Below, piece after piece: positions 1-11,347 of a stretch of 11,790 nucleotides of DNA. The notes under the pieces are model-generated. The model was not told where the DNA came from. It searched no databases and worked only from the letters and a program-made list of their open reading frames with translations. Both the position numbers and the translations under genes were made by a program. The first letter of the stretch is position 1. The number at the start of each line of letters is the position of its first letter. This DNA is from Candidatus Bipolaricaulia bacterium (GTDB lineage Bacteria > Bipolaricaulota > Bipolaricaulia > JBHIAT01), in the NCBI GenBank assembly GCA_046758705.1, contig JBHIAT010000118.1:1-11790 (forward strand), in the 5' to 3' direction.

Positions 1-15
1 CTCCCCTCCCAAGTA

Positions 16-45
16 TTGCACAGTGCCGCAGCGCTTTCATATAAT
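16..45 (+). promoter_or_regulatory. Putative sigma70 promoter of the ABC-transporter operon
   Basis: TTGCAC (16-21), 18-nt spacer, perfect TATAAT (40-45); lies upstream of SD GGGGAGG (74-80) and ATG at 89. Confidence 0.65.
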
Positions 46-88
46 CATACTAAAAACTGTAAATGCTCAAAAGGGGGAGGTTAGGCCC

Positions 89-1810
89 ATGAGTGAACCT
101 TCATCTTCAGAAGATCAACAGGCACTGCAGAAGCAGTGGGAGCCCTTGCTAAAGCTCTACAAGCAAGGCAAGATCAGTCGAAGGCAGTTCGTCAAGTTGG
201 GCCTCGCAGTCGGTGGAGCGGCTGCCCTTACAGCCGCAGGCACATCCTCTATCGTCCAGAAGGTTCTGGCACAGGGGTTAGAACCGCAGGTGCTCATCTA
301 CGCGGCCGACCAAGATATTCCCACGATCGATCCTTCGGATCGTACCGATTACTCCATCGGGGCTGTCTCGCGTCAGATCTATGATCGACTCTTCCGGTTT
401 GAGGGTGGCTGGCCAGCGCCGGTGGAACCGGGATTGGCCAGTAAGTGGGAAGCATCCCCGGATGCCCGTGAATGGATCTTTCACCTCACGGATCAGGCCA
501 AGTTCCATGACGGGACCCTGGTGACGGCTGAAGCGGTCAAATTCTCATACGAGCGCACACTGCGCATGAAGAAGCAGCGTTCCAATGTTCTCCAGCCATA
601 CCTGGATGAGACAGGCAGCGTCGAGGTCATGGACGACCACACCGTGCGCATGACCCTGAAGACGCCTTTTGGTGATTTCCCGCGACTCTTGGCATTCCAA
701 GAGCAGGGCATCGTGAACCCCAAACAGGTCAGGGATCATGAACGGGGCGGAGATGAAGGAGCGGAGTGGCTCCGGACTCATGAGGCAGGATCGGGCCCGT
801 TCACGTTGAAGAGCTGGAGGCCGGAGATATCCACTTATGAGTTCGAAGCGGTGCCAGATTACTGGCAGGGGTGGCCCGGTGAGGGACATCTGGCCGGGTT
901 CGTCTGGCGAGTCATCGGCGAGCCGACATCGCGGCGCCTGGCCCTGCTATCGGGAGAAGCGGATATCGCCGACGTGATCTCAGTCGATGACCTCGCAATC
1001 CTCAAAAACGATCCCCGAATCACAACCCAGAGCAACGCAGGTTTGCTCGCCGGCTACGTCAAGCTCAACAACACGAAGCCACCCACTTCCGATCCCAACT
1101 TCCGCAGGTTCCTGGCCTATGCTTTTGACTACCAGGCCATCGAGGACTTTCTTTTAGGTACAGCGCCCCTGATGGTTGGCCCGATCCCGCAGGGCGTGGG
1201 GGGCCACGATCCAGAGGTTCAACCCTTGTACCGTCACGATTTGAACAAGGCGCGTGAGTACCTTGACAAGACACCCTGGAAGGATGGGGGCGTAGAGGTT
1301 GACTACGTGTACGTCACCGGCCTGGACTTTGAGGAGCAGGTCGGCCTCATCCTCCTCGACCAGCTGCGCAGGTTCAACATTAAGGTCAACCTGGTGCCTA
1401 AAATCTGGCCTGACATGGTGGCCAGCTGTGCTTTCCCGGAGACCGGTCCCCACATGATCAATATCTTCGTCCAGAGCGCGCCGATCCCTGACCTCTGGTT
1501 CGTCGAGCAGTTCTACTCGCCCAACTGGGATCGCGAAACCGGAGGTTCATTCCAGACCTGCGAGTTCTACAAAAGCCCCACGGTCAACACGTTGATTGAG
1601 AAGTTGCTCGTCACAACGGACACAGAAGCTCGCTTGAGGATCATCAGAGGTCTGCAGCAACTCGTCATGGAAGATGTACCGAGCATGCCACTGTTTGTCA
1701 TATCCAACAACTTGGGATTCCGCAAGCGAGTCCAGGGCTATGAATACTTTGGCGATATCAGTGTGGACTTCTGGCGACTTTGGATCGATGACAGTAAAGA
1801 GAGGGCATAA
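89..1810 (+). CDS. ABC transporter solute-binding protein, family 5 (peptide/nickel/opine-type), Tat-exported
   Basis: Start moved from GTG 23 to ATG 89 because of the strong SD (aagggggagg, 71-80) and because GTG 23 lies inside the promoter. Twin-arginine motif SRRQFVK, hydrophobic h-region, AxA-like site VLA|Q. SBP5 hallmarks: PGLASKWEASPD..W.FHL....KFHDGT.VTAEAVKFSYER and GSGPF.L. Confidence 0.93.
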   Translation: MSEPSSSEDQQALQKQWEPLLKLYKQGKISRRQFVKLGLAVGGAAALTAAGTSSIVQKVLAQGLEPQVLIYAADQDIPTIDPSDRTDYSIGAVSRQIYDRLFRFEGGWPAPVEPGLASKWEASPDAREWIFHLTDQAKFHDGTLVTAEAVKFSYERTLRMKKQRSNVLQPYLDETGSVEVMDDHTVRMTLKTPFGDFPRLLAFQEQGIVNPKQVRDHERGGDEGAEWLRTHEAGSGPFTLKSWRPEISTYEFEAVPDYWQGWPGEGHLAGFVWRVIGEPTSRRLALLSGEADIADVISVDDLAILKNDPRITTQSNAGLLAGYVKLNNTKPPTSDPNFRRFLAYAFDYQAIEDFLLGTAPLMVGPIPQGVGGHDPEVQPLYRHDLNKAREYLDKTPWKDGGVEVDYVYVTGLDFEEQVGLILLDQLRRFNIKVNLVPKIWPDMVASCAFPETGPHMINIFVQSAPIPDLWFVEQFYSPNWDRETGGSFQTCEFYKSPTVNTLIEKLLVTTDTEARLRIIRGLQQLVMEDVPSMPLFVISNNLGFRKRVQGYEYFGDISVDFWRLWIDDSKERA

Positions 1811-1818
1811 AGCGCTAT

Positions 1819-1853
1819 AGTGTAAAGTGTAAAGAACTTTAGAGAATAGAGAG
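1819..1853 (+). repeat. Short degenerate heptamer tandem repeats in the SBP-permease spacer
   Basis: AGTGTAA x2 (1819-1832), then TAGAGAA/TAGAGAG (1840-1853). Confidence 0.4.
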
Positions 1854-1865
1854 TGAGACGTCCTG

Positions 1866-2879
1866 ATGGGCCTTGGAGGATATATATTCCGACGACTGCT
1901 GCTGATCATACCCACAGCGATTGGTTTGTCCATCTTGACTTTCATTATCTCACATATGGTTCCGGGTGATCCGGTTCGCCTGGCAGCTGGTCCCCGTGCA
2001 GGTCCCAAGGAGATCAAGGCCCTGAGGCACGAGTTCGGCTTCGATAAGCCTCTGCATATCCAATACCTGGAGTATATGAAGGGGGTGACGCGGGGAGATC
2101 TAGGTCGATCCGTCATGAGCAGCCGCCCGGTGGTGGAGGACCTGCGAAACTTTTTCCCAGCGACCCTGGAGCTCATCCTGGTCTCCATGGTGATCGCTCT
2201 CGTGCTGGGCATCCCGATCGGACTGTACTCCGCGGCTTATTCGAATCGCTGGATAGATCACTTATCACGGTTAATGGCCGTTGGCTCGATCAGCTTCCCG
2301 ATATTTTGGGTCGCCATTCTATTGCAGGTCGTTTTTGCTTGGCAGCTGGGCTGGTTTCCGGTCAGTGGTCGTTTTGATATACGCCAGGCGATACCGCCTT
2401 CACAGACAAACCTACTGTTATTGGATACCTTGCTTTCTGGAAATTGGAAGGCATTTCCGGTTGTGCTTCGCCACATCGCCTTGCCGGCCTTATGCCAGTC
2501 CCTGCTAGGTTTTGCCCTCGTGGTACGCATGTTGCGCACCGAGGCGCTCACCGTGTTATCACAAGACTTTGTGCGCGTGGCGTACGCTAAGGGGTTGGGA
2601 GAGCAGCGTGTGCTGCTTGGACACGTATTGCGGAATGCCCTGATTCCTACGATTTCGATGGTCGGGTTCCTGTTCGGGTTTCTACTGGGTGGTTCCGTGC
2701 TGATAGAGGCTGTGTTCGATTGGCCGGGCATTGGACTCTATGTCACCAAGTCGGCGCTGACCTTGGATTTTCAACCGATCATGGGGATCACCTTGTTTGT
2801 GGGTGTATTGGTGATGTTCACCACCTTGTTCACAGACATCCTTTACGGTGTCGTAGATCCGCGCATTCGACATGAGTAA
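1866..2879 (+). CDS. ABC transporter permease, OppB/DppB type
   Basis: N-terminal YIFRRLL...PGDP, GDLGRS, PATLEL, EAA loop 'QDFVRVAYAKGL', RNALIP, E.VF.WPG.G and C-terminal D.LY..VDPRIR; multiple TM segments. Confidence 0.95.
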   Translation: MGLGGYIFRRLLLIIPTAIGLSILTFIISHMVPGDPVRLAAGPRAGPKEIKALRHEFGFDKPLHIQYLEYMKGVTRGDLGRSVMSSRPVVEDLRNFFPATLELILVSMVIALVLGIPIGLYSAAYSNRWIDHLSRLMAVGSISFPIFWVAILLQVVFAWQLGWFPVSGRFDIRQAIPPSQTNLLLLDTLLSGNWKAFPVVLRHIALPALCQSLLGFALVVRMLRTEALTVLSQDFVRVAYAKGLGEQRVLLGHVLRNALIPTISMVGFLFGFLLGGSVLIEAVFDWPGIGLYVTKSALTLDFQPIMGITLFVGVLVMFTTLFTDILYGVVDPRIRHE

Positions 2880-3828
2880 ATATGTAGGTTCCACCATTGA
2901 CAAGCGACAACTGCCTGGGATTCCAGCATGGCGTGAAGGGCTCAGCCGGATACGACTCCTGTTAGGGCTAGACGAGCGTGCCATCCGCCGCTTCAAGCGT
3001 GATCCTCTGTCCTGGGTGGGACTTACGATCGTTGGGCTTCTCGCGCTCATCGCGATCACCGGGACTTACTGGGTACCCTATCCTGACGATGCAGTGGGAG
3101 CCATTCATGTTCGCGAGCGCTTCGAGCCTCCCAACTCAAAGCATCTTTTCGGCACGGACAATATGGGACGCGATGTATTCACTCGTGTGGTGCTGGGGAC
3201 GCGCATTTCACTCGCCGTAGGGGCGATTATTCTCGTCGTGGCGATAACGATTGGCACCCTATTGGGCAGTATCGCGGGATATTACGGAGGTTGGATCGGT
3301 GAGGGCATTATGCGTTTCACCGACCTGATGCTCACCATTCCCGGAATCTTTTTGGCATTGGCGATTGCTGCGGCGCTAGGCCCTGGTGTCATCAACGCGA
3401 CGTTGGCGCTTTCCGTCACCTGGTGGCCGGGCTACTGTCGCTTGGTACATGCTCAAGTGCTCGCCGCCCGTGAGAACTTCCATGTGGAAGCCGCGCGCTC
3501 GATTGGGGCGAGCAACCGGCGGATCATCTCTCGACATATCTTGCCCAACATTTTGCCTGCCGTGATCGTAAAGGCGTCCATGGATTTTGGCTTTGCGGTA
3601 TTAAGCCTTGCAGCGCTGGGCTTTATTGGCGTCGGTGCTCAACCCCCCTCTCCGGAGTGGGGCGCTATGGTTGCCTTTGGCCGGCGCTTCCTGCCTCAAT
3701 TTTGGTGGTCGTCGACCTTCCCTGGCCTGGCCATGTTTCTCACCGTCTTAGGCTTTAATCTGCTTGGTGATGGTCTTCGTGATATGCTGGACCCGCATAG
3801 TCACAGGGCAAGCCGAGGTGAGTCGTAA
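2872..3828 (+). CDS. ABC transporter permease, OppC/DppC type
   Basis: HLFGTDNMGRDVFTRV..G.RISL, EAA loop 'VEAARSIGAS..RII.RHILPN', PPSPEWG, FNLLGDGLRD.LDP; overlaps the upstream gene by 8 nt. Confidence 0.95.
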   Translation: MSKYVGSTIDKRQLPGIPAWREGLSRIRLLLGLDERAIRRFKRDPLSWVGLTIVGLLALIAITGTYWVPYPDDAVGAIHVRERFEPPNSKHLFGTDNMGRDVFTRVVLGTRISLAVGAIILVVAITIGTLLGSIAGYYGGWIGEGIMRFTDLMLTIPGIFLALAIAAALGPGVINATLALSVTWWPGYCRLVHAQVLAARENFHVEAARSIGASNRRIISRHILPNILPAVIVKASMDFGFAVLSLAALGFIGVGAQPPSPEWGAMVAFGRRFLPQFWWSSTFPGLAMFLTVLGFNLLGDGLRDMLDPHSHRASRGES

Positions 3829-3885
3829 ACATCCGAACTGTCATCGTGCCAAAGCGGTAGGCGAGTTAGGTTTCTCACGCTGACC

Positions 3886-4992
3886 ATGTGGAAGATCACA
3901 GAGGAGATGATAGAGGCGATTGCAATCGGTGCGGGTATCTTGGGTACCGGCGGCGGGGGAAATCCATATATAGGAATGCTGCGTCTACGCTCTCTGCTTC
4001 AGGAAGGACGAACCGTACAGGTCGTTTCACCTGCTGAATTGCCCGAAGATGCATTAGTTGTGATTTGTGCTGGCATCGGGGCTCCCACCGTAGGGGTTGA
4101 GAAGCTGGAGCAAGGCCATGAGGGTCTGTGGGCGCTCAGAGGGTTGGAGCGGGAGATGGGTCGCAAGGTGACCGCCGTCATCTCCGCAGAGATCGGTGGT
4201 GCGAACTCTATTGAACCGATGGTCGTCTCTGCGTTGGCAGGCCTGCCTGTGGTCGATGGTGACGGAATGGGGCGGGCATTCCCCGAGGTCCAGATGGTCA
4301 CGTTTTTTATCTACGGCGTCTCGCCCGTTCCGGGCATCCTGTGCGATGAGAAGGGCAACCAGGTGGTCATCCGACACGCTCTTGATGCCGTGAGCGTGGA
4401 GCGCTTCGCGCGTGCCGTCACGATCCAGATGGGATGTACGGCTACGATGGCGTCTTCTCCTATGACTGCAGTGGAAGTCCAAGGAACGGCCGTGCCCTAC
4501 ACGCTCAGTCTCGTCCGGGCGGTTGGGGAAGCGGTTCTGGCCGCGAGACGGACTCATACCGATCCGATAGAAGCCATCTTGGAGGTCACCGGTGGCACCG
4601 TGCTGTTTCGCGGTAAGATCGTGGACGTAGAAAGGCGTACGGTGACCGGCTTCGCCAGGGGAGAGGTGAACATCGAAGGATTGGACGCCGATCGAGGCCA
4701 ACAGCTCAACGTGCGGTTTCAAAACGAGAATCTGATCGCCGTGCGCGATGGACAGGTGATCGCCTGCGTACCCGATCTCATTTGCATCGTGGATCGGGAG
4801 ACAGGTGAACCGGTGACTACAGAGCTGTTGCGTTTTGGACAACGAGTGGCGGTTCTGGGAATCCCGTGCGCGTCGTTGTTGAGGCAACCCGAGGCGTTAC
4901 CTGTCGTCGGGCCAGCCGCTTTCGGCTATGATGACGTGACCTATCAACCTCTGCCGGGAGAGATGCCGCTTCGGCCTCGGTACGGTTCTTGA
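3886..4992 (+). CDS. DUF917 family protein (putative hydantoin/thiohydantoin- or imidazolone-type hydrolase)
   Basis: DUF917 motifs GAGILGTGGGG.P, GAPT, EIGG.N, VVDGDGMGRAFPE.QM, FQNENL, PDLI, TTE.LR.GQRV, GP.AFG. Family call is confident; the function is inference. Confidence 0.88.
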   Translation: MWKITEEMIEAIAIGAGILGTGGGGNPYIGMLRLRSLLQEGRTVQVVSPAELPEDALVVICAGIGAPTVGVEKLEQGHEGLWALRGLEREMGRKVTAVISAEIGGANSIEPMVVSALAGLPVVDGDGMGRAFPEVQMVTFFIYGVSPVPGILCDEKGNQVVIRHALDAVSVERFARAVTIQMGCTATMASSPMTAVEVQGTAVPYTLSLVRAVGEAVLAARRTHTDPIEAILEVTGGTVLFRGKIVDVERRTVTGFARGEVNIEGLDADRGQQLNVRFQNENLIAVRDGQVIACVPDLICIVDRETGEPVTTELLRFGQRVAVLGIPCASLLRQPEALPVVGPAAFGYDDVTYQPLPGEMPLRPRYGS

Positions 4993-5013
4993 GTTTCGGT
5001 GCGTGCCGTTTGG

Positions 5014-5781
5014 CTAAGGTCGATCTCCACTGATGACGCCACCCAACAGGCCGCCGATGCCTCTCTGCTCACCCTTTTGTTGGAAGCGGGCCGCTGCAAA
5101 GATACGATCCGCAAGGCGCGAGAATGGGAGGCTCTGCAGATAGAGGAGCCCTGGGCCGGTCATCTTGGCCAAAAATATCCCTTCTCCCCCGAACAGCGCG
5201 TTTTTGAATCCCCCAACAAACTGAATATCGTAGCCTACAGACGGAGAGAAGGCTACCAGACATCCGGTATCTACGCGTAAAGTCTCATTGGGTGCAAGCT
5301 CCCGTTCAATAATCGTTCCTCCGGCGTGGACAAATGCTATGCCATCCCCTTCAAGGCGCTGTAGGATAAAACCCTCACCGCCGAACAGCCCGGTGCCGAT
5401 CTTTTTTGTAAAAGCGACCTCAATTTCAATCCCCTTGGCCGCGCACAGAAACGCGTCCTTCTGGCATAGAAACTTGCCTCCGAGTTTGTCCAGTTCAAGC
5501 GGGATGATCTTGCCTGGATAGGGAGCTCCGAAGGCCACACGCCCTTTCCCCGCGCCGTCGTAAAGGAAGGTGGTAATAAAAAAACTCTCTCCGGTGACCA
5601 TACGCTTAAATCCTTTAAACAAACCGCCGCCGGTGGAGGTTTGCATCTCGATTCCATCATCCATGTACATCATCGCGCCGGCTTCGGCTCTCACGCCTTC
5701 GGTGGGATCCAATTCCACCTCAACCAATTGCATATCGTCCCCGTAAATCTTGTAATCGATGACATCGGCTATAACTGTCAC
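5014..5781 (-). CDS. AIM24/TIGR00266 family protein (TRAP-like beta fold, function unknown)
   Basis: Motifs [74 protein letters not shown]. Start is ambiguous: GTG 5781 overlaps the SD, while ATA 5772 is at optimal spacing (see findings). Confidence 0.9.
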
Positions 5782-5881: not shown

Positions 5882-7045
5882 ATGTCCGAATCTGACACCG
5901 AGAAGCTACAACGGCGCAACCGTGAACTGGCTATCCTCAATGAGATCGCCCAGGCGCTGAACCGCGAGGTCGATCTCAACCAGGCACTGCACACCACATT
6001 GGCCCAGGTGGCTGAATTGCTCGACCTGCGGACCGGCTGGATTTGGCTGCTCGACGAAGAAACGGGTGAGTCCTATCTGGTGGCAGCGCAGAACCTTCCA
6101 CCCGCACTGGCCAACAATCCTTCTCGCATGGAGGGACGTTGCTATTGCCTGGACACCTACAGAGCGGGTGACCTGGACGGTGCGGCGAATGTCAACGTCA
6201 TTACCTGTAGTCGGCTCTACGGATTGGTGGATGGTACGGACGGACTGCGCTACCACGCGAGCATCCCACTGTATGCGCAGGGTGAGAAGAAGAAACTGGG
6301 CGTTCTCAACGTGGCCAGTCCCGACTGGCGGGAACTCTCGGCGGAAGATCTGCAACTGCTTTACACAATGGGCGATTTACTCAGCATTGCAATCGAACGG
6401 GCGCGGTTGTTTGATCGCAGTGTTCAACTGGGTGCCTTAGAGGAGCGCAATCGGTTGGCACGTGAGATTCACGACACGCTGGCGCAAGGGTTATCGGCCA
6501 TCGCTTTGCAACTGGAGACAGCCGACGCCCTGCAACAGGCAGATGTCGATCCAGAGCGCGTCCGGCAGGCGGTGTATCAAGCCCTGGTTCTGACTCGCGC
6601 CAATTTGGAGGAGGCCCGTCGCTCGGTGCTTGACCTGCGGGCCGCTCCACTGGAGGGGCGCACGCTGGCTGAAGCATTGTCTTCGCTGGCAGAGGAGTGG
6701 ATCACAAAGGGAAACCTGCAACTGCGCTTTGAGGTCGTGGGTGGGAATCGCTCGCTGCCAACACGCATTGAGATGGGGCTATACCGAATCGCTCAGGAGG
6801 CATTGACCAACGTCGTTCGCCATGCTCATGCGAACCACGTCACGGTACAACTGGTGGCGACACCGGATCAAATAAAACTGAAGGTGGAGGACGATGGCCG
6901 GGGCTTTGATTCATCCCGGATCCCTAAGGACCGGTACGGGCTCATGGGCTTGAACGAACGTGCAAAACTGCTCGGGGGCACGTTGAAGCTAAAGAGCAGC
7001 CCGGATGCAGGTACGTGCCTTGAGGTTATCGTACCTTTAACGTGA
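5882..7045 (+). CDS. Cytoplasmic GAF-domain sensor histidine kinase, HisKA_3 class (YhcY/AirS-like)
   Basis: No TM segment. N-terminal GAF (TGWIWL, LPPAL, CYC, ITC, HASIPL, LGVLNVA). H-box ERNRLAREIHDTLAQ, N-box LYRIAQEALTNV.RHA, G1 VEDDGRGF, GL.GL.ERA. SD GGAGGA 7 nt upstream. Confidence 0.93.
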   Translation: MSESDTEKLQRRNRELAILNEIAQALNREVDLNQALHTTLAQVAELLDLRTGWIWLLDEETGESYLVAAQNLPPALANNPSRMEGRCYCLDTYRAGDLDGAANVNVITCSRLYGLVDGTDGLRYHASIPLYAQGEKKKLGVLNVASPDWRELSAEDLQLLYTMGDLLSIAIERARLFDRSVQLGALEERNRLAREIHDTLAQGLSAIALQLETADALQQADVDPERVRQAVYQALVLTRANLEEARRSVLDLRAAPLEGRTLAEALSSLAEEWITKGNLQLRFEVVGGNRSLPTRIEMGLYRIAQEALTNVVRHAHANHVTVQLVATPDQIKLKVEDDGRGFDSSRIPKDRYGLMGLNERAKLLGGTLKLKSSPDAGTCLEVIVPLT

Positions 7046-7680
7046 ACAAGATGACACAGCAAATTCGTATTCTGGTCGCAGACGATCACCCGATTGTACG
7101 GGAGGGTCTGATCGCTATCCTCAGCACGCAACCTGACTTTGAGGTGGTCGGCGAGGCAGCCACAGGTGACGAGGTCGTTCAGCAGGTGACGACGCTCCAG
7201 CCCGACGTGGTGCTTCTAGACTTGGAGATGCCCCAGATGGACGGTGTTGAGACCATTAAACACTTGCGCCAGGCTGGATCAGACGTTCGGGTGATCGTTT
7301 TCACCGCTTTCGACACCGACGAGCGGATTGTGGGAGCGGTGAAAGCCGGTGCCCAAGGCTATCTGCTCAAAGGAACACCGCGTGAAGAGATCTTCCAAGC
7401 GGTGCGCGTCGTTCATGCGGGTGAATCGTTGCTTCAACCCGTTGTGACTTCTAAACTGCTCAAGCATATCAGCCAAGACGTTGAGCAACTCACACCTCGC
7501 GAACTGGACGTGCTGCGCCTGCTGGCGCAGGGCCTGAAGAATAAGGAGATCGCCGAAACACTGTTCAGAAGCGAACGCACCGTCAAGTTTCACGTCAGCT
7601 CGATCTTGAGAAAGCTGGGAGCTGAGAACCGCACTGAAGCGGTGTCGATCGCTGTTCAAAAAGGCCTCATCGATCTTTAA
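7042..7680 (+). CDS. NarL/FixJ-family response regulator (REC + LuxR HTH)
   Basis: ILVADDHPIVREG, PDVVLLDLEMP (phospho-Asp), GAQGYLLK, LTPRELDVL.LLAQGL.NKEIA..L..SERTVKFHVSSI..KLG..NRTEAV. GTGA overlap with the kinase stop; alternative ATG at 7051. Confidence 0.95.
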   Translation: MNKMTQQIRILVADDHPIVREGLIAILSTQPDFEVVGEAATGDEVVQQVTTLQPDVVLLDLEMPQMDGVETIKHLRQAGSDVRVIVFTAFDTDERIVGAVKAGAQGYLLKGTPREEIFQAVRVVHAGESLLQPVVTSKLLKHISQDVEQLTPRELDVLRLLAQGLKNKEIAETLFRSERTVKFHVSSILRKLGAENRTEAVSIAVQKGLIDL

Positions 7681-8357: not shown

Positions 8358-8439
8358 CCATGCGCCAACTGCAGGGGATCGATCTGTAACGCCCTCTCTC
8401 TAAAGATATCGGGCCTCCCACCTGGATTCGAACTGTACC

Positions 8440-8470
8440 AAAGGACAGGGTTCAACCCTGTCCTTTTTTT
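8440..8470 (+). terminator. Possible rho-independent terminator (alternatively paired regulator boxes)
   Basis: Perfect 13-bp inverted repeat AAAGGACAGGGTT-C-AACCCTGTCCTTT (8440-8466) whose right arm runs into a 7-T tract (8464-8470), about 80 nt after the YdcF stop. Confidence 0.5.
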
Positions 8471-8515
8471 AGGAAAAAAACAGGCCTTGTTCCTGATGTG
8501 CACACCCATTTCTCG

Positions 8516-8572: not shown

Positions 8573-9289
8573 ATGGCCTTAAATAAACATCAAACCGCGC
8601 TGATCACCGGCGCATCCCGTGGACTTGGCCTGGCGCTCGCCCGCCAACTTGCCCAGCGCAGATGGCATTTGATCATTGATGCTCGTGGTGGACAGGCTCT
8701 CGAGGCCGTTCGTGTAGAACTCTCGAAACTGACAGAGGTGACGGCCATCCCTGGTGATGTGACCGATGAGACGCACCGCTGGCGGCTTGCCGAGGCTGCC
8801 AGAGCCAGTGGCGGCCTGGACGCAGTCGTGAACAACGCCAGCACCCTGGGTCCCAGTCCGCAGCCTCATCTGCTCGATTACCCTCTGGATGTGCTTGAGC
8901 AGGTCTACCGCACAAACGTGATCGCCCCACTGGCGCTGCTCCAGGCGGTCCAGGACGCGTTAAAGCCCGGCGCTCGTGTGATCAACGTGACCAGTGACGC
9001 CGGCCTCGAAGCCTACGCAGGCTGGGGTGGATACGGTTCAAGCAAGGCTGCACTCGAACAGCTCTCGGCCGTCTTCGCCGTCGAAAATCCCTCACTGCGC
9101 GTCTATTGGGTGGATCCGGGTGACATGCGTACGCAAATGCAACAGGAGGCTTTTCCCGGTGAGGACATCAGCGATCGTCCTCCACCGGAGGAGAGCGTAC
9201 CCGGTCTCCTTACGCTGCTTGAAGATAACAGGTCCAGTGGCCGCTACATGGCTCGCAAACTAAACGAGAACGAGAAGAAAAGAAAATGA
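8573..9289 (+). CDS. Classical short-chain dehydrogenase/reductase (SDR), probably NADP(H)-preferring
   Basis: TGASRGLG Rossmann motif, GDV, VVNNA, catalytic S (VTSDA), YGSSK, VDPGDMRT. Arg in the Gly motif and after beta2 (DAR) suggests NADPH. Confidence 0.93.
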   Translation: MALNKHQTALITGASRGLGLALARQLAQRRWHLIIDARGGQALEAVRVELSKLTEVTAIPGDVTDETHRWRLAEAARASGGLDAVVNNASTLGPSPQPHLLDYPLDVLEQVYRTNVIAPLALLQAVQDALKPGARVINVTSDAGLEAYAGWGGYGSSKAALEQLSAVFAVENPSLRVYWVDPGDMRTQMQQEAFPGEDISDRPPPEESVPGLLTLLEDNRSSGRYMARKLNENEKKRK

Positions 9290-10455
9290 ACGAGAATTTC
9301 AGTACAACACTATCTCTGCCATCCACAGCCGTTCCGGAGTTAAGCGCATTAGATTTTCATCTGCCGCCGGAGCTCGAGGCCAGCGAACCGCCCGAGGCTC
9401 GTGGCCTGTCACGCGACGAGGTGCGATTGATGGTCTCTTATCGTGCCGGTAACCGCATTGTGCATACGAAGTTCCACGACCTCCCCGATTTCCTCGACGC
9501 CGGCGACGTGTTGGTGATCAATACCAGCGGCACGATGAACGCGGCGATGAACGCCACCCGTGCGGACGGCACGCCACTCGAGTTGCATCTGTCCACCAAA
9601 CTCCCGGGGGGACTGTGGGTGGTGGAACTGCGTCAACCGGATGATGTGACCACAAAACCCTTCTATACAGCCACGGCTGGGGAGACCCTCTCACTACCGG
9701 ACGGCGCTTCAATCACCCTTCATGCACCGTACCGGCAGGATCATCGTACGACCGAAACGGGTGGTGAAGGTCGCGTTCGGCTGTGGATTGCGACCGTTGA
9801 CCTTCCCGATCCGTTGGACAATTATCTGACACGGCACGGTTTCCCGATTCGTTATCGCTACGTCAATCAGAGCTGGCCGCTCTCCTACTATCAGACGGCC
9901 TACGTCACTGAGATGGGCAGCGCTGAAATGCCCTCGGCCGGGCGGGCGTTCACGCCTGAACTGATGACCCAACTGGTCGCGCGGGGTGTTCAAGTGGTTC
10001 CCTTGATCCTGCACACAGGTGTCGCCAGTCTAGAGGATCACGAACCGCCGTATGAGGAGTACTACCACGTGCCACCCGAAACCGCCCGCATCGTAAACGC
10101 TGCGCATGCTGTCAGCAAGCGGATCATAGCGGTTGGTACGACGGTGGTGCGAGCCCTTGAGACCGTCACCGACGAACAGGGCATCACCCATCCAGGCAAG
10201 GGTTGGACGCGCGTGATCGTCACACCCGAACGTGGCATACGGGCCGTAGATGCGTTATTGACCGGACTGCACGAGCCGCGCGCCACACATCTCGCCATGT
10301 TAGAAGCGCTTGTCGGCCTCGATCACTTGCTCGTCACCTACGACGAGGCACTTGAGAAGGGTTACCTATGGCACGAGTTCGGGGACCTGCATTTGATATT
10401 GCCCTGGCCTCTTCCTAGCCTCACGGACAGGGAATCCGCTCCGGCCCCTGGTTGA
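9286..10455 (+). CDS. QueA-like protein (SAM:tRNA ribosyltransferase-isomerase family, divergent paralog)
   Basis: DFHLPPEL, GD.LV.N, YQT, LH.G, IAVGTTVVRALE and terminal GD..LI follow QueA order, but several signature motifs are replaced (see findings). ATGA overlap with the SDR. Confidence 0.88.
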   Translation: MNENFSTTLSLPSTAVPELSALDFHLPPELEASEPPEARGLSRDEVRLMVSYRAGNRIVHTKFHDLPDFLDAGDVLVINTSGTMNAAMNATRADGTPLELHLSTKLPGGLWVVELRQPDDVTTKPFYTATAGETLSLPDGASITLHAPYRQDHRTTETGGEGRVRLWIATVDLPDPLDNYLTRHGFPIRYRYVNQSWPLSYYQTAYVTEMGSAEMPSAGRAFTPELMTQLVARGVQVVPLILHTGVASLEDHEPPYEEYYHVPPETARIVNAAHAVSKRIIAVGTTVVRALETVTDEQGITHPGKGWTRVIVTPERGIRAVDALLTGLHEPRATHLAMLEALVGLDHLLVTYDEALEKGYLWHEFGDLHLILPWPLPSLTDRESAPAPG

Positions 10456-11347
10456 TGAATGCTTCGATGAACGCCTCGATCCGGTCGTGGTCGAACTCGT
10501 CGAACTTGTCGATCTGGCCCCAGGCGGTCAACGCAATGTTGCGATCCAGACCCGGATATGGCGCGATGATCAACCGGCAGTGCCTCTCGGTGAAACTGCG
10601 CAGCTCGTCGACGATCGAGTCGGCGATCCCGAGCCGGTACTGGATTATGACCCCTCCATGTTCCAGGTTATGGACCTGGAGTTCATCGGGGATCGGTTCG
10701 GTGTGCACCCCCCAAGGGGCGGTGAATGGATAATGCCAGCCTGAGGTGGCCGGCACGGAATTGTATGGGGGATGGGATTGTCCCTGGCCTATATGCTGGA
10801 ATCCCTGGATCGGGACCGAGATCGCCTGTAAGGCTTCGGTCTCTCTCGCCCCTTCAGGCGGCGATCCCTCCTCAGACACAGGGATACCCAGATCCATCAC
10901 GCTCTGTGCACCAACGGTAAGGATCTTCCACTCCGCCTTCTCTTTCACCACCGCGAAGATTTCCAGTTCTTCCTCCGGTTCATCGCCGAATTGAGCGATC
11001 ACACGCACGCCGGCTTTCTGTTCATCCAGATAGAAAATCTCCGGCGTGAGAGTGACATTGAGCGTACCCTCGGATGTCTCAGGTATAGATGTTCCCTCAT
11101 CGCTAAAGGCCGCGGCGATCTCAAGCTTCAGCTCCTTATAACCCAACCCCGACTCATCATGATAGGCTTTGGAGATCGTGGACATGAACAGGATTAAACT
11201 CCTCGTTTGAAACGCCCGCTCCAATCGATCGAACAGTTCGATGATCTGCTCCTCATCGGTGAGCTCGACTTCGTCCGCCACGGCAGGGAGCCAAAGCCCC
11301 CAGACGAGGATGAAGATCCATATCAAGATGTTAATGGATTTGCTCAT
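10421..11347 (-). CDS. Secreted protein: signal peptide + putative NTF2/SnoaL-like domain + C-terminal DUF3105 domain
   Basis: Sec-type signal ending PAVA|DE. C-terminal H....H..YNS.PATSGWHY, VHNLEHGGVIIQY, IIAPYPGL...IALTAWG and F......GPE match DUF3105. The N-terminal domain (EEQIIELFDRLERAF...FMSTIS..Y...KE..EWKI) resembles NTF2-like folds (lower confidence). Confidence 0.8.
   Translation of the reverse strand: MSKSINILIWIFILVWGLWLPAVADEVELTDEEQIIELFDRLERAFQTRSLILFMSTISKAYHDESGLGYKELKLEIAAAFSDEGTSIPETSEGTLNVTLTPEIFYLDEQKAGVRVIAQFGDEPEEELEIFAVVKEKAEWKILTVGAQSVMDLGIPVSEEGSPPEGARETEALQAISVPIQGFQHIGQGQSHPPYNSVPATSGWHYPFTAPWGVHTEPIPDELQVHNLEHGGVIIQYRLGIADSIVDELRSFTERHCRLIIAPYPGLDRNIALTAWGQIDKFDEFDHDRIEAFIEAFINQGPERIPCP

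Follow-up and report, generated by a model that had tools for sequence, protein, structure and literature searches.

A widespread offshoot of the QueA fold that is encoded with a short-chain dehydrogenase/reductase and is probably part of an undescribed S-adenosylmethionine-based pathway

QueA, the S-adenosylmethionine (SAM):tRNA ribosyltransferase-isomerase that makes epoxyqueuosine in tRNA, works by deprotonation at C5', loss of adenine, addition of the nucleophile, ring closure and loss of methionine, which leaves an epoxide. A passage of one review calls QueA a 'unique enzyme' for the SAM-derived carbocycle (PMC9092360). According to a passage of a 2018 survey of tRNA-modification enzymes, detected homologs were assumed to have the known function (PMC6063277), an assumption that the protein family described here breaks. 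We analyzed a stretch of 11,790 nucleotides (the window; positions 1 to 11,790 of contig JBHIAT010000118.1, assembly GCA_046758705.1) from a Candidatus Bipolaricaulia bacterium, in which a gene for a short-chain dehydrogenase/reductase (SDR) is followed by a gene for a QueA-like protein. As judged from sequence comparison, the QueA-like protein is a member of a widespread, conserved and uncharacterized offshoot of the QueA fold. The family to which the pair belongs almost certainly does not serve queuosine synthesis, and the pair is probably part of an undescribed SAM-based pathway.

The QueA-like protein resembled canonical QueA over its whole length, matching PF02547 (Queuosine_synth) with 258 bits (cut-off, 25) across profile positions 2 to 322 of 322, and it aligned to three solved QueAs (1vky, 1wdi, and 1yy3) with E values of 7e-48 to 2e-36. 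It fell well short of the NCBIfam QueA equivalogs NF001140 and TIGR00113, scoring 182.5 and 157.3 where their cut-offs are 324 and 267.45, respectively, and a further NCBIfam score was 114.4 against a cut-off of 588. These profiles place it in the QueA superfamily, and by equivalog cut-off, tree and motifs it appears to lie outside QueA proper. A database search returned at least 8000 related sequences; the best 120 of them were 67 to 75% identical to the window protein and are named SAM:tRNA ribosyltransferase-isomerase in the source databases, while the ESM Atlas gave a generic family name only. A scan of one genome per species yielded 80 related loci, most of them in Chloroflexota and the others in Rubrobacteraceae, Acidimicrobiales, Yinghuangia, Meiothermus/Thermaceae, Vicinamibacterales, Gemmatimonadota, Bacteroidota and two Bacillota. 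The carriers belong to the phyla Chloroflexota, Actinomycetota, Deinococcota, Acidobacteriota, Gemmatimonadota, Bacteroidota and Bacillota and include the cultured organisms Ktedonosporobacter rubrisoli SCAWS-G2, Brevibacillus sp. SYP-B805 and Yinghuangia seranimata. Between Chloroflexota classes and Rubrobacter, the paralog was about 70 to 75% identical. No description of the subfamily was found in the passages of literature searched, including those of PMC5699537, PMC1282579, PMC9092360, PMC6063277, PMC10570037 and PMC11760712, a search with most subscription journals outside its scope.

The canonical QueAs used for comparison (23 sequences from 22 carrier genomes) were 28 to 35% identical to the window protein, except for a divergent sequence, L110, at 24%. 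A maximum-likelihood tree (LG+G4, quick search) was built from 97 rows, 74 of them paralogs and 23 canonical QueAs, of which 22 came from genomes whose paralog was also in the tree. A single branch, with a Shimodaira-Hasegawa-like approximate likelihood ratio test (SH-aLRT) value of 100 and lengths of 0.56 + 0.93, divided the two groups. The paralogs form a separate clade and a distinct, uncharacterized subfamily of the QueA superfamily.

The two groups also differed in a defined set of residues. Column statistics were taken from the 74 paralogs and 22 canonical QueAs, with the long-branched L110 excluded. Sixty-four alignment columns were conserved and identical in both groups, including YQT, GS.A.P.AG..F, LH.G, AVGTT..R.LE, T..H.P and Y...FGD. 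Another 25 columns, located within these shared motifs, were conserved (at least 90%) in each group but with different residues, and 19 columns were conserved in the paralog only and 23 in canonical QueA only. The canonical consensus reads lIAQ.P, N.rV.pARl, PLPPYI, GSaAAPTAGLHF, LHvGl.TF.P.H.mh.E, TNFHLP.St and YRF.SfGDA, and the paralog consensus reads LeA.ePPEaRG, NTSgTlnAAl, PIRY.Y, GSAEMPSAGRaF, LHTGVaSlE.hEppYeE, TGlHEP and YLWHEFGD. Thus, GSaAAPTAGLHF is paired with GSAEMPSAGRaF, TNFHLP with TGlHEP, YRF.SfGDA with YLWHEFGD, PLPPYI with PIRY.Y, and H.mh.E with hEppYeE. Unlike canonical QueA, the paralog additionally has a 4-residue insertion (PPEaRGl) in the N-terminal motif. Relative to canonical QueA, it has lost eight conserved basic positions and three canonical histidines and gained five arginines, nine acidic residues and five histidines; R43, R47, R279 and R289 are basic and conserved in both groups. 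The median net charge of the core was -11.5 in the paralog versus -5 in canonical QueA, and the paralog core was more acidic than that of the canonical QueA from the same genome in 17 of 22 pairs. The initial annotation of this DNA had listed the motif swaps, had proposed a test of whether GSAEMPSAGR-type proteins form a clade, and had taken the swaps to look more like remodelling than decay. The swaps agree with the computed consensus and are family-wide, with YQT and AvGTT..R.LE common to both groups, and the single clade was recovered. The conservation of the new residue set throughout the family bears out the last claim as well, pointing to purifying selection on that set and not to decay.

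Individual copies of the paralog were broken in three genomes, G115 (C15:142204-143245, four TGA codons), G120 (C4:758189-759202, one TGA codon) and G112 (C4:85545-86592, in two pieces), which suggests occasional gene decay. Two other PF02547 genes stood out. L110 (G122:C23:40375-41571) is a third and very divergent gene of the family (319.7 bits, end branch of 2.66) in a Saprospiraceae genome that also carries a canonical QueA (443 bits) and a paralog (241 bits), and an Acidimicrobiales QueA adjoining tgt (L109, G119:C81:6095-7147) was unusually divergent at 323.7 bits.

Unlike canonical QueA, the paralog is paired with an SDR. The ATGA overlap by which the initial annotation had coupled the two genes of the window was read directly in the sequence together with both open reading frames (ORFs), and this arrangement identifies them, as far as sequence can, as a translationally coupled two-gene operon. 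The SDR matched adh_short (PF00106) with an E value of 1.4e-34. As in classical SDRs of the YciK, glucose-1-dehydrogenase and ketoreductase type, it carries TGxxxGxG (T12-G13..G17.G19), NNA (N87-N88-A89) and the tetrad N115/S141/Y154/K158, all of which were invariant in 33 aligned orthologs; by the criteria of PF00106, it can be taken as a catalytically intact classical SDR. Its nearest solved chains were 4z0t and 6yc8. In contrast to classical SDRs, it reached no NCBIfam model at cut-off (best score, 112.6 bits against 215), and the partner SDRs have a family-specific WGGYGSSK motif and, following the catalytic region, a strongly conserved segment, DPGDMRTQMHQEAFPGEDISDRP. With regard to the preference for NADPH over NADH that the initial annotation had assumed, two features of the sequence, an R16 within the glycine motif and D36-A37-R38 behind strand 2, point in opposite directions by the usual cofactor rules.

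An SDR ortholog (37 to 76% identity) was present in 72 of the 80 paralog loci, and it lay upstream on the same strand in 71 of these 72, the other (L023) having it convergent and downstream. Seven of the eight loci lacking the SDR have less than 500 nt upstream of the QueA-like gene and cannot be judged, and one (L024) lacked it despite about 4 kb on either side of the paralog. The spacing among the 72 loci was a 4-nt overlap in 23, a gap of 0 to 60 nt in 22, a gap of 61 to 300 nt in 7 and a gap of more than 300 nt in 6; the remaining 13 showed longer apparent overlaps, which probably reflect over-extended ORF starts. The six wide gaps consisted of inserted ORFs (L027 and L041), short ORFs (L063), a paralog in pieces (L064 and L067) and a 319-nt gap (L060). 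A second SDR was inserted between the SDR and the QueA-like gene in L027 (3070-3933), as were two ORFs without assigned identity (179 and 159 amino acids) in L041 (2897-3905); the short ORFs of L063 (3112-3916) looked glyoxalase-like by eye and were not matched by the VOC query. Two sets of Actinomycete loci, of 20 and 6, were inspected, and the SDR immediately preceded the paralog in every locus of both; four genomes were common to these sets, which makes 22 of 22 genomes, with L114 and L115 as the two additional ones. The SDR linkage, for which the initial annotation had proposed a test, is thus conserved. All-against-all clustering of the neighboring ORFs of the 80 loci and 20 Actinomycete loci revealed no third gene common to most loci, and the SDR is the only constant companion of the paralog. 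A candidate third conserved gene in Actinomycetes proved to be another SDR and was rejected. A search for longer proteins gave 16 matches, 13 of which were single-sequence clusters, and some of these proteins join SDR and QueA-like domains or include a response regulator; because the matches were mostly partial, the fusions are probably artefacts of merged gene calls, and no weight was placed on them.

Some of the loci carry additional components. A C-terminal VOC/glyoxalase domain was fused to the SDR in 19 of the 80 loci, and the three extensions scanned all matched PF00903 (E values of 2e-8 to 3e-12), as do members of the VOC superfamily (glyoxalase, bleomycin-resistance and dioxygenase proteins); the sole extension scanned against NCBIfam, that of L009, received no name. 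The domain is only accessory here. In Brevibacillus, the QueA-like gene is followed closely by an ORF that is VOC-like, although the similarity is weak (25% identity, E value of 2.7e-5). Orthologs of the sensor kinase encoded in the window were found in 17 of the 80 loci (47 to 73% identity) and orthologs of its response regulator in 19 (57 to 68% identity), mostly directly upstream of the SDR and on the same strand. These loci belong to Rubrobacter, several Chloroflexota and Vicinamibacterales, and to Saprospiraceae (L078) for the regulator, four phyla in all. In the GAF domain of the kinases, the columns C-x-C, C-[ST]-R-L and H-[AS]-S did not vary among the 14 orthologs aligned, and they may form a sensing site for a metal, an Fe-S cluster or redox state. 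In 6 of 20 Actinomycete loci, a kinase of the HisKA_3 type and a regulator of the NarL type were likewise found beside the SDR, in divergent orientation, and all four of the neighboring Actinomycete kinases inspected had a GAF domain without the CxC motif. Where they occur, in roughly 20 to 25% of the loci and in the window itself, the kinase and regulator may control the two-gene unit.

The distribution of the paralog separates it from queuosine synthesis. Canonical QueA and the paralog were told apart by their PF02547 scores, which ranged from 296 to 479 bits for canonical QueA and from 201 to 287 bits for full-length paralogs. Both were present in 44 of 50 carrier genomes and in 3 of 5 further carriers (Ktedonosporobacter rubrisoli, Brevibacillus and Alkalihalobacillus). 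Among 151 unselected Chloroflexota, 113 had a PF02547 match and 26 had a full-length match in the paralog range, and 25 of these 26 carriers also had a canonical QueA. All of the queA-tgt adjacencies observed belong to the canonical gene, which adjoins tgt in at least six genomes (G002, G083, G088, G090, G119 and G121). In the three genomes that have tgt on the contig of the paralog (G098, G107 and G112), 61 to 86 kb separate the two genes. The strongest separation was found in Actinomycetes, which a survey describes, in the passage concerned, as mostly non-queuosine bacteria (PMC10570037). Of 151 sampled Actinomycete genomes, 44 had a PF02547 match (175 to 257 bits), 20 had TGT (PF01702), and none had both. 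The Actinomycete proteins were of the paralog type, with GSAEM..S..R.F-type motifs in 20 of 20, YLWHEFGD in 16 of 20 and GWT in 18 of 20, and the isolate Yinghuangia seranimata carried the pair but lacked tgt, queG and queH. Since TGT is what places preQ1 in tRNA, the paralog cannot act as QueA in Actinomycetes that lack it and does not make epoxyqueuosine in tRNA, at least there. The claim of the initial annotation that this is not queuosine synthesis is therefore supported by the absence of TGT from all 44 Actinomycete carriers, by the coexisting canonical QueA elsewhere and by the separate clade. Independence from tgt, for which it had proposed a test, is borne out mainly by the Actinomycetes, as discussed below. 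Three unpublished genomes were included, and no conclusion depends on them: G127 (L058) is counted in the 80 loci, the 72 SDR loci, the tree and the six paralog-only genomes of the 50; G147 is one of the 44 Actinomycete carriers; and G304 is a Chloroflexota genome with a canonical match only.

The host genome of the window (G000; 3.70 Mb in 319 contigs, 93.9% complete, 4.7% contamination) belongs to a phylum in which queuosine genes are unevenly retained. Among 74 genomes of its GTDB phylum that are at least 90% complete, 66 had tgt (63 above cut-off) and 3 had a PF02547 match, so that keeping tgt without QueA is the rule in this phylum. This fits salvage of the finished base, which has been proposed, in a passage of one paper, for other QueA-less bacteria (PMC5699537). 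G000 had no QueC above cut-off, no QueF and no QueH, and QueG appeared only as a partial match of 45.9 bits. The nearest relatives of the window paralog among the matches listed were from Chloroflexota, at about 75% identity, and in the other carrier of the phylum, G031, the QueA-like protein and the SDR were 36% and 43% identical to those of the window. From this pattern we infer that the pair was acquired sporadically by horizontal transfer. Mis-binning of the window contig was considered and rejected, as its GC content (0.560 against a genome mean of 0.570, standard deviation of 0.024) and its tetranucleotide distance (70.6th percentile of 160 contigs) are typical of the genome.

Our preferred reading, to which we assign a probability of about one half, is that the paralog uses SAM for ribosyl transfer and isomerization on an acceptor other than tRNA and that the SDR then carries out a redox step. 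SAM is the likely donor because the 64 shared columns and their motifs have been retained; SAM binding has probably been kept, and with it the chemistry of QueA, with release of adenine and methionine and rearrangement of the ribosyl carbons. The switched columns, together with the losses and gains of charged residues and histidines, would probably direct the reaction to a nucleophile other than tRNA, for which a small molecule is the likeliest candidate, and the SDR would then oxidize or reduce a hydroxyl or carbonyl group of the ribose-derived product. VOC enzymes are known to open the epoxide of fosfomycin, and by analogy the fused VOC domain, where present, may open or isomerize an epoxide or enone, although this is speculation. 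The Cys-rich GAF kinase and NarL-type regulator may control the pair where they adjoin it. A more specific version of this scheme is possible but doubtful: the pair would make a hitherto undescribed free metabolite with a carbon ring derived from the ribose of SAM, such as an epoxy-, amino- or keto-cyclopentane polyol, through QueA-type ylide chemistry on a small-molecule nucleophile with tailoring by the SDR (and VOC domain), and the product could serve as a signal, cofactor or stress protectant that is under control of the GAF kinase in a subset of loci.

Several observations weigh against the preferred reading. The use of SAM, the acceptor and the substrate of the SDR are all things that we infer; the charge difference between the groups is modest, with 5 of the 22 genome pairs going the opposite way; and the VOC domain and two-component system are absent from most loci, the VOC domain also from the SDR of the window. 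The other observations concern queuosine. Outside Actinomycetes, 49 of 50 carriers have tgt, as most bacteria do, and independence from tgt consequently rests mainly on the Actinomycetes and on G120, the carrier without tgt, whose paralog has an internal stop. The paralog is also the sole PF02547 gene of G000, which has a genuine bacterial tgt (TIGR00430, 477 bits), and it is the sole QueA-family gene in eight other genomes, seven of which have tgt (G004, G031, G092, G103, G118, G126 and G127). Three of these (G092, G103 and G126) also have QueC and QueG, so that either their canonical queA is unassembled or the paralog can substitute for it. Taken together with the full-length PF02547 homology and the database name, these genomes would suit a divergent yet functional QueA isozyme that makes epoxyqueuosine in tRNA. 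We nevertheless consider such an isozyme highly improbable, given the absence of TGT from all Actinomycete carriers, the canonical QueA already present in 25 of the 26 Chloroflexota and 44 of the 50 other carriers, the scores under both equivalog cut-offs and the constant SDR partner, which has no role in the known queuosine pathway. The six carriers without a canonical queA among the 50 may be about what is expected for incomplete metagenome-assembled genomes. For G000 itself, no separate canonical queA was found, and the paralog is literally the only QueA of a tgt-containing genome, a finding that the initial annotation had named as grounds for refutation; this carries little weight, because the phylum keeps tgt without QueA (66 of 74 genomes against 3 of 74) and G000 lacks QueC, QueF, QueG and QueH. 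G004, an 11.3-Mb chromosome with tgt and QueC, had no canonical QueA, QueG or QueH. In the same Chloroflexia genome (C1:6841336-6949470), there are three weak matches to the TGT family (28.9 to 58.3 bits), and the QueC gene (197.6 bits, 6946122-6946736) is located some 2 kb away from one of them, an arrangement that may be a DpdA-type DNA-modification cluster.

Other activities can be envisaged for the same pair. The paralog could split SAM, or a SAM-like sulfonium compound, in a catabolic or detoxifying reaction with water as the nucleophile, giving adenine, methionine and a ribose-derived carbonyl or epoxide that the SDR (and VOC domain) would dispose of. SDR and VOC/glyoxalase domains are typical for the handling of carbonyls and electrophiles, just two genes are conserved with no biosynthetic cluster around them, and an adjoining Cys-rich GAF kinase would fit a stress response; the high conservation between Chloroflexota classes and Rubrobacter and the rebuilt polar residues suggest, however, a specific second substrate, and we hold this splitting reaction to be rather unlikely. 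Attachment of a SAM-derived cyclopentyl group to another macromolecule (an RNA or DNA base amine or a protein amine), with the SDR tailoring the attached group, seems distinctly unlikely to us. The sole characterized member of the superfamily acts on tRNA, the four arginines common to both groups are kept and so is the two-domain length, but eight canonical basic positions are neutral or acidic in the paralog, its core is more acidic, and SDR and VOC partners usually act on small molecules. Moreover, no nucleic-acid-modification gene (TGT or DpdA homologue) was linked to the pair, and PADLOC gave no match for the SDR, QueA-like, DUF218 and DUF3105 proteins. It is improbable, too, that the fold now serves a different substrate in place of SAM, for instance some other nucleoside or a sugar derivative, with no transfer of the SAM ribosyl group. 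Core residues that are invariant in canonical QueA have indeed been replaced (GSaAAPTAGLH by GSAEMPSAGRa, and the histidines of H.mh.E by E and Y), the names of the three QueA structures do not identify any of them as a complex with SAM, and according to a passage of a 2005 survey a QueA-SAM complex structure was then not available. Against this recruitment stand the columns identical in both families, which include most of the glycine- and threonine-rich motifs, and the profile match over nearly every position of PF02547. SAM-dependent transfer to a non-tRNA acceptor, followed by the SDR step, remains the reading that we prefer.

The features of the window that bear on the pair are collected in Table 1. 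The hairpin between the DUF218 gene and the SDR gene resembles an intrinsic terminator: the fold of positions 8436 to 8476 had a free energy of -19 kcal/mol (z of -4.18, with 0 of 200 shuffles equally stable) and a U7 tail, and the hairpin was not flagged by a scan for promoter and terminator consensus sequences. Because it separates the DUF218 gene from the SDR, the pair looks like a transcription unit of its own. A scan with Rfam gathering thresholds of the window and 15 related loci gave one rRNA and one tRNA only, with no riboswitch upstream of the pair. Thirteen ORFs of the window were scanned with Pfam, and they comprised SBP_bac_5, two ABC permeases, an S-Me-THD-like protein, AIM24, the GAF-HisKA_3 kinase, the NarL-type regulator, DUF218, the SDR, the QueA-like protein, DUF3105, a CMD-family protein and a 93-amino-acid ORF without a match. 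No domain of tgt, queC/D/E/F/G/H or yajC was among them, in agreement with what the initial annotation had reported for queuosine genes in the window. Positions 2 to 5781 hold an ABC peptide-type transporter (an SBP_bac_5 protein with a twin-arginine translocation signal and two permeases) followed by the S-Me-THD-like (DUF917-type) gene, with the AIM24-family gene on the opposite strand. The QueA-like gene shares its last 35 nt (10421-10455) with the convergent DUF3105 gene. Neither the DUF3105 and CMD-family proteins nor the S-Me-THD and AIM24 proteins had a homologue in the 80 related loci.

Table 1. Features of the window around the SDR/QueA-like gene pair
Feature	Position	Strand	Description
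SDR gene	8573..9289	+	238 aa; Pfam adh_short; putative dedicated partner of the QueA-like gene
QueA-family paralog gene	9286..10455	+	389 aa; GSAEMPSAGR / TGLHEP / YLWHEFGD type; Pfam PF02547
ATGA stop/start overlap (SDR stop, QueA-like start)	9286..9289	+	Read directly in the sequence
Terminator-like hairpin and U-run	8440..8470	+	RNA fold; between the DUF218 gene and the SDR gene
Cytoplasmic GAF-HisKA_3-HATPase sensor kinase gene	5882..7045	+	Pfam domains
NarL/LuxR-type response regulator gene	7042..7680	+	Pfam Response_reg and GerE
DUF3105 gene	10421..11347	-	Convergent to the QueA-like gene

The existence of this family has consequences for how QueA homologs are read in genomes. Since the paralogs carry the name SAM:tRNA ribosyltransferase-isomerase in the source databases, genome-based predictions that infer the capacity for queuosine from the presence of any QueA homolog would err for many Actinomycetes and for genomes like G000. 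A widespread second branch of the QueA fold, with its rebuilt set of conserved polar residues and its redox partner, would indicate SAM chemistry of a new kind and probably a new metabolite or modification, and a free metabolite such as that envisaged above would, if it exists, give the ribosyl group of SAM a second use in biology.

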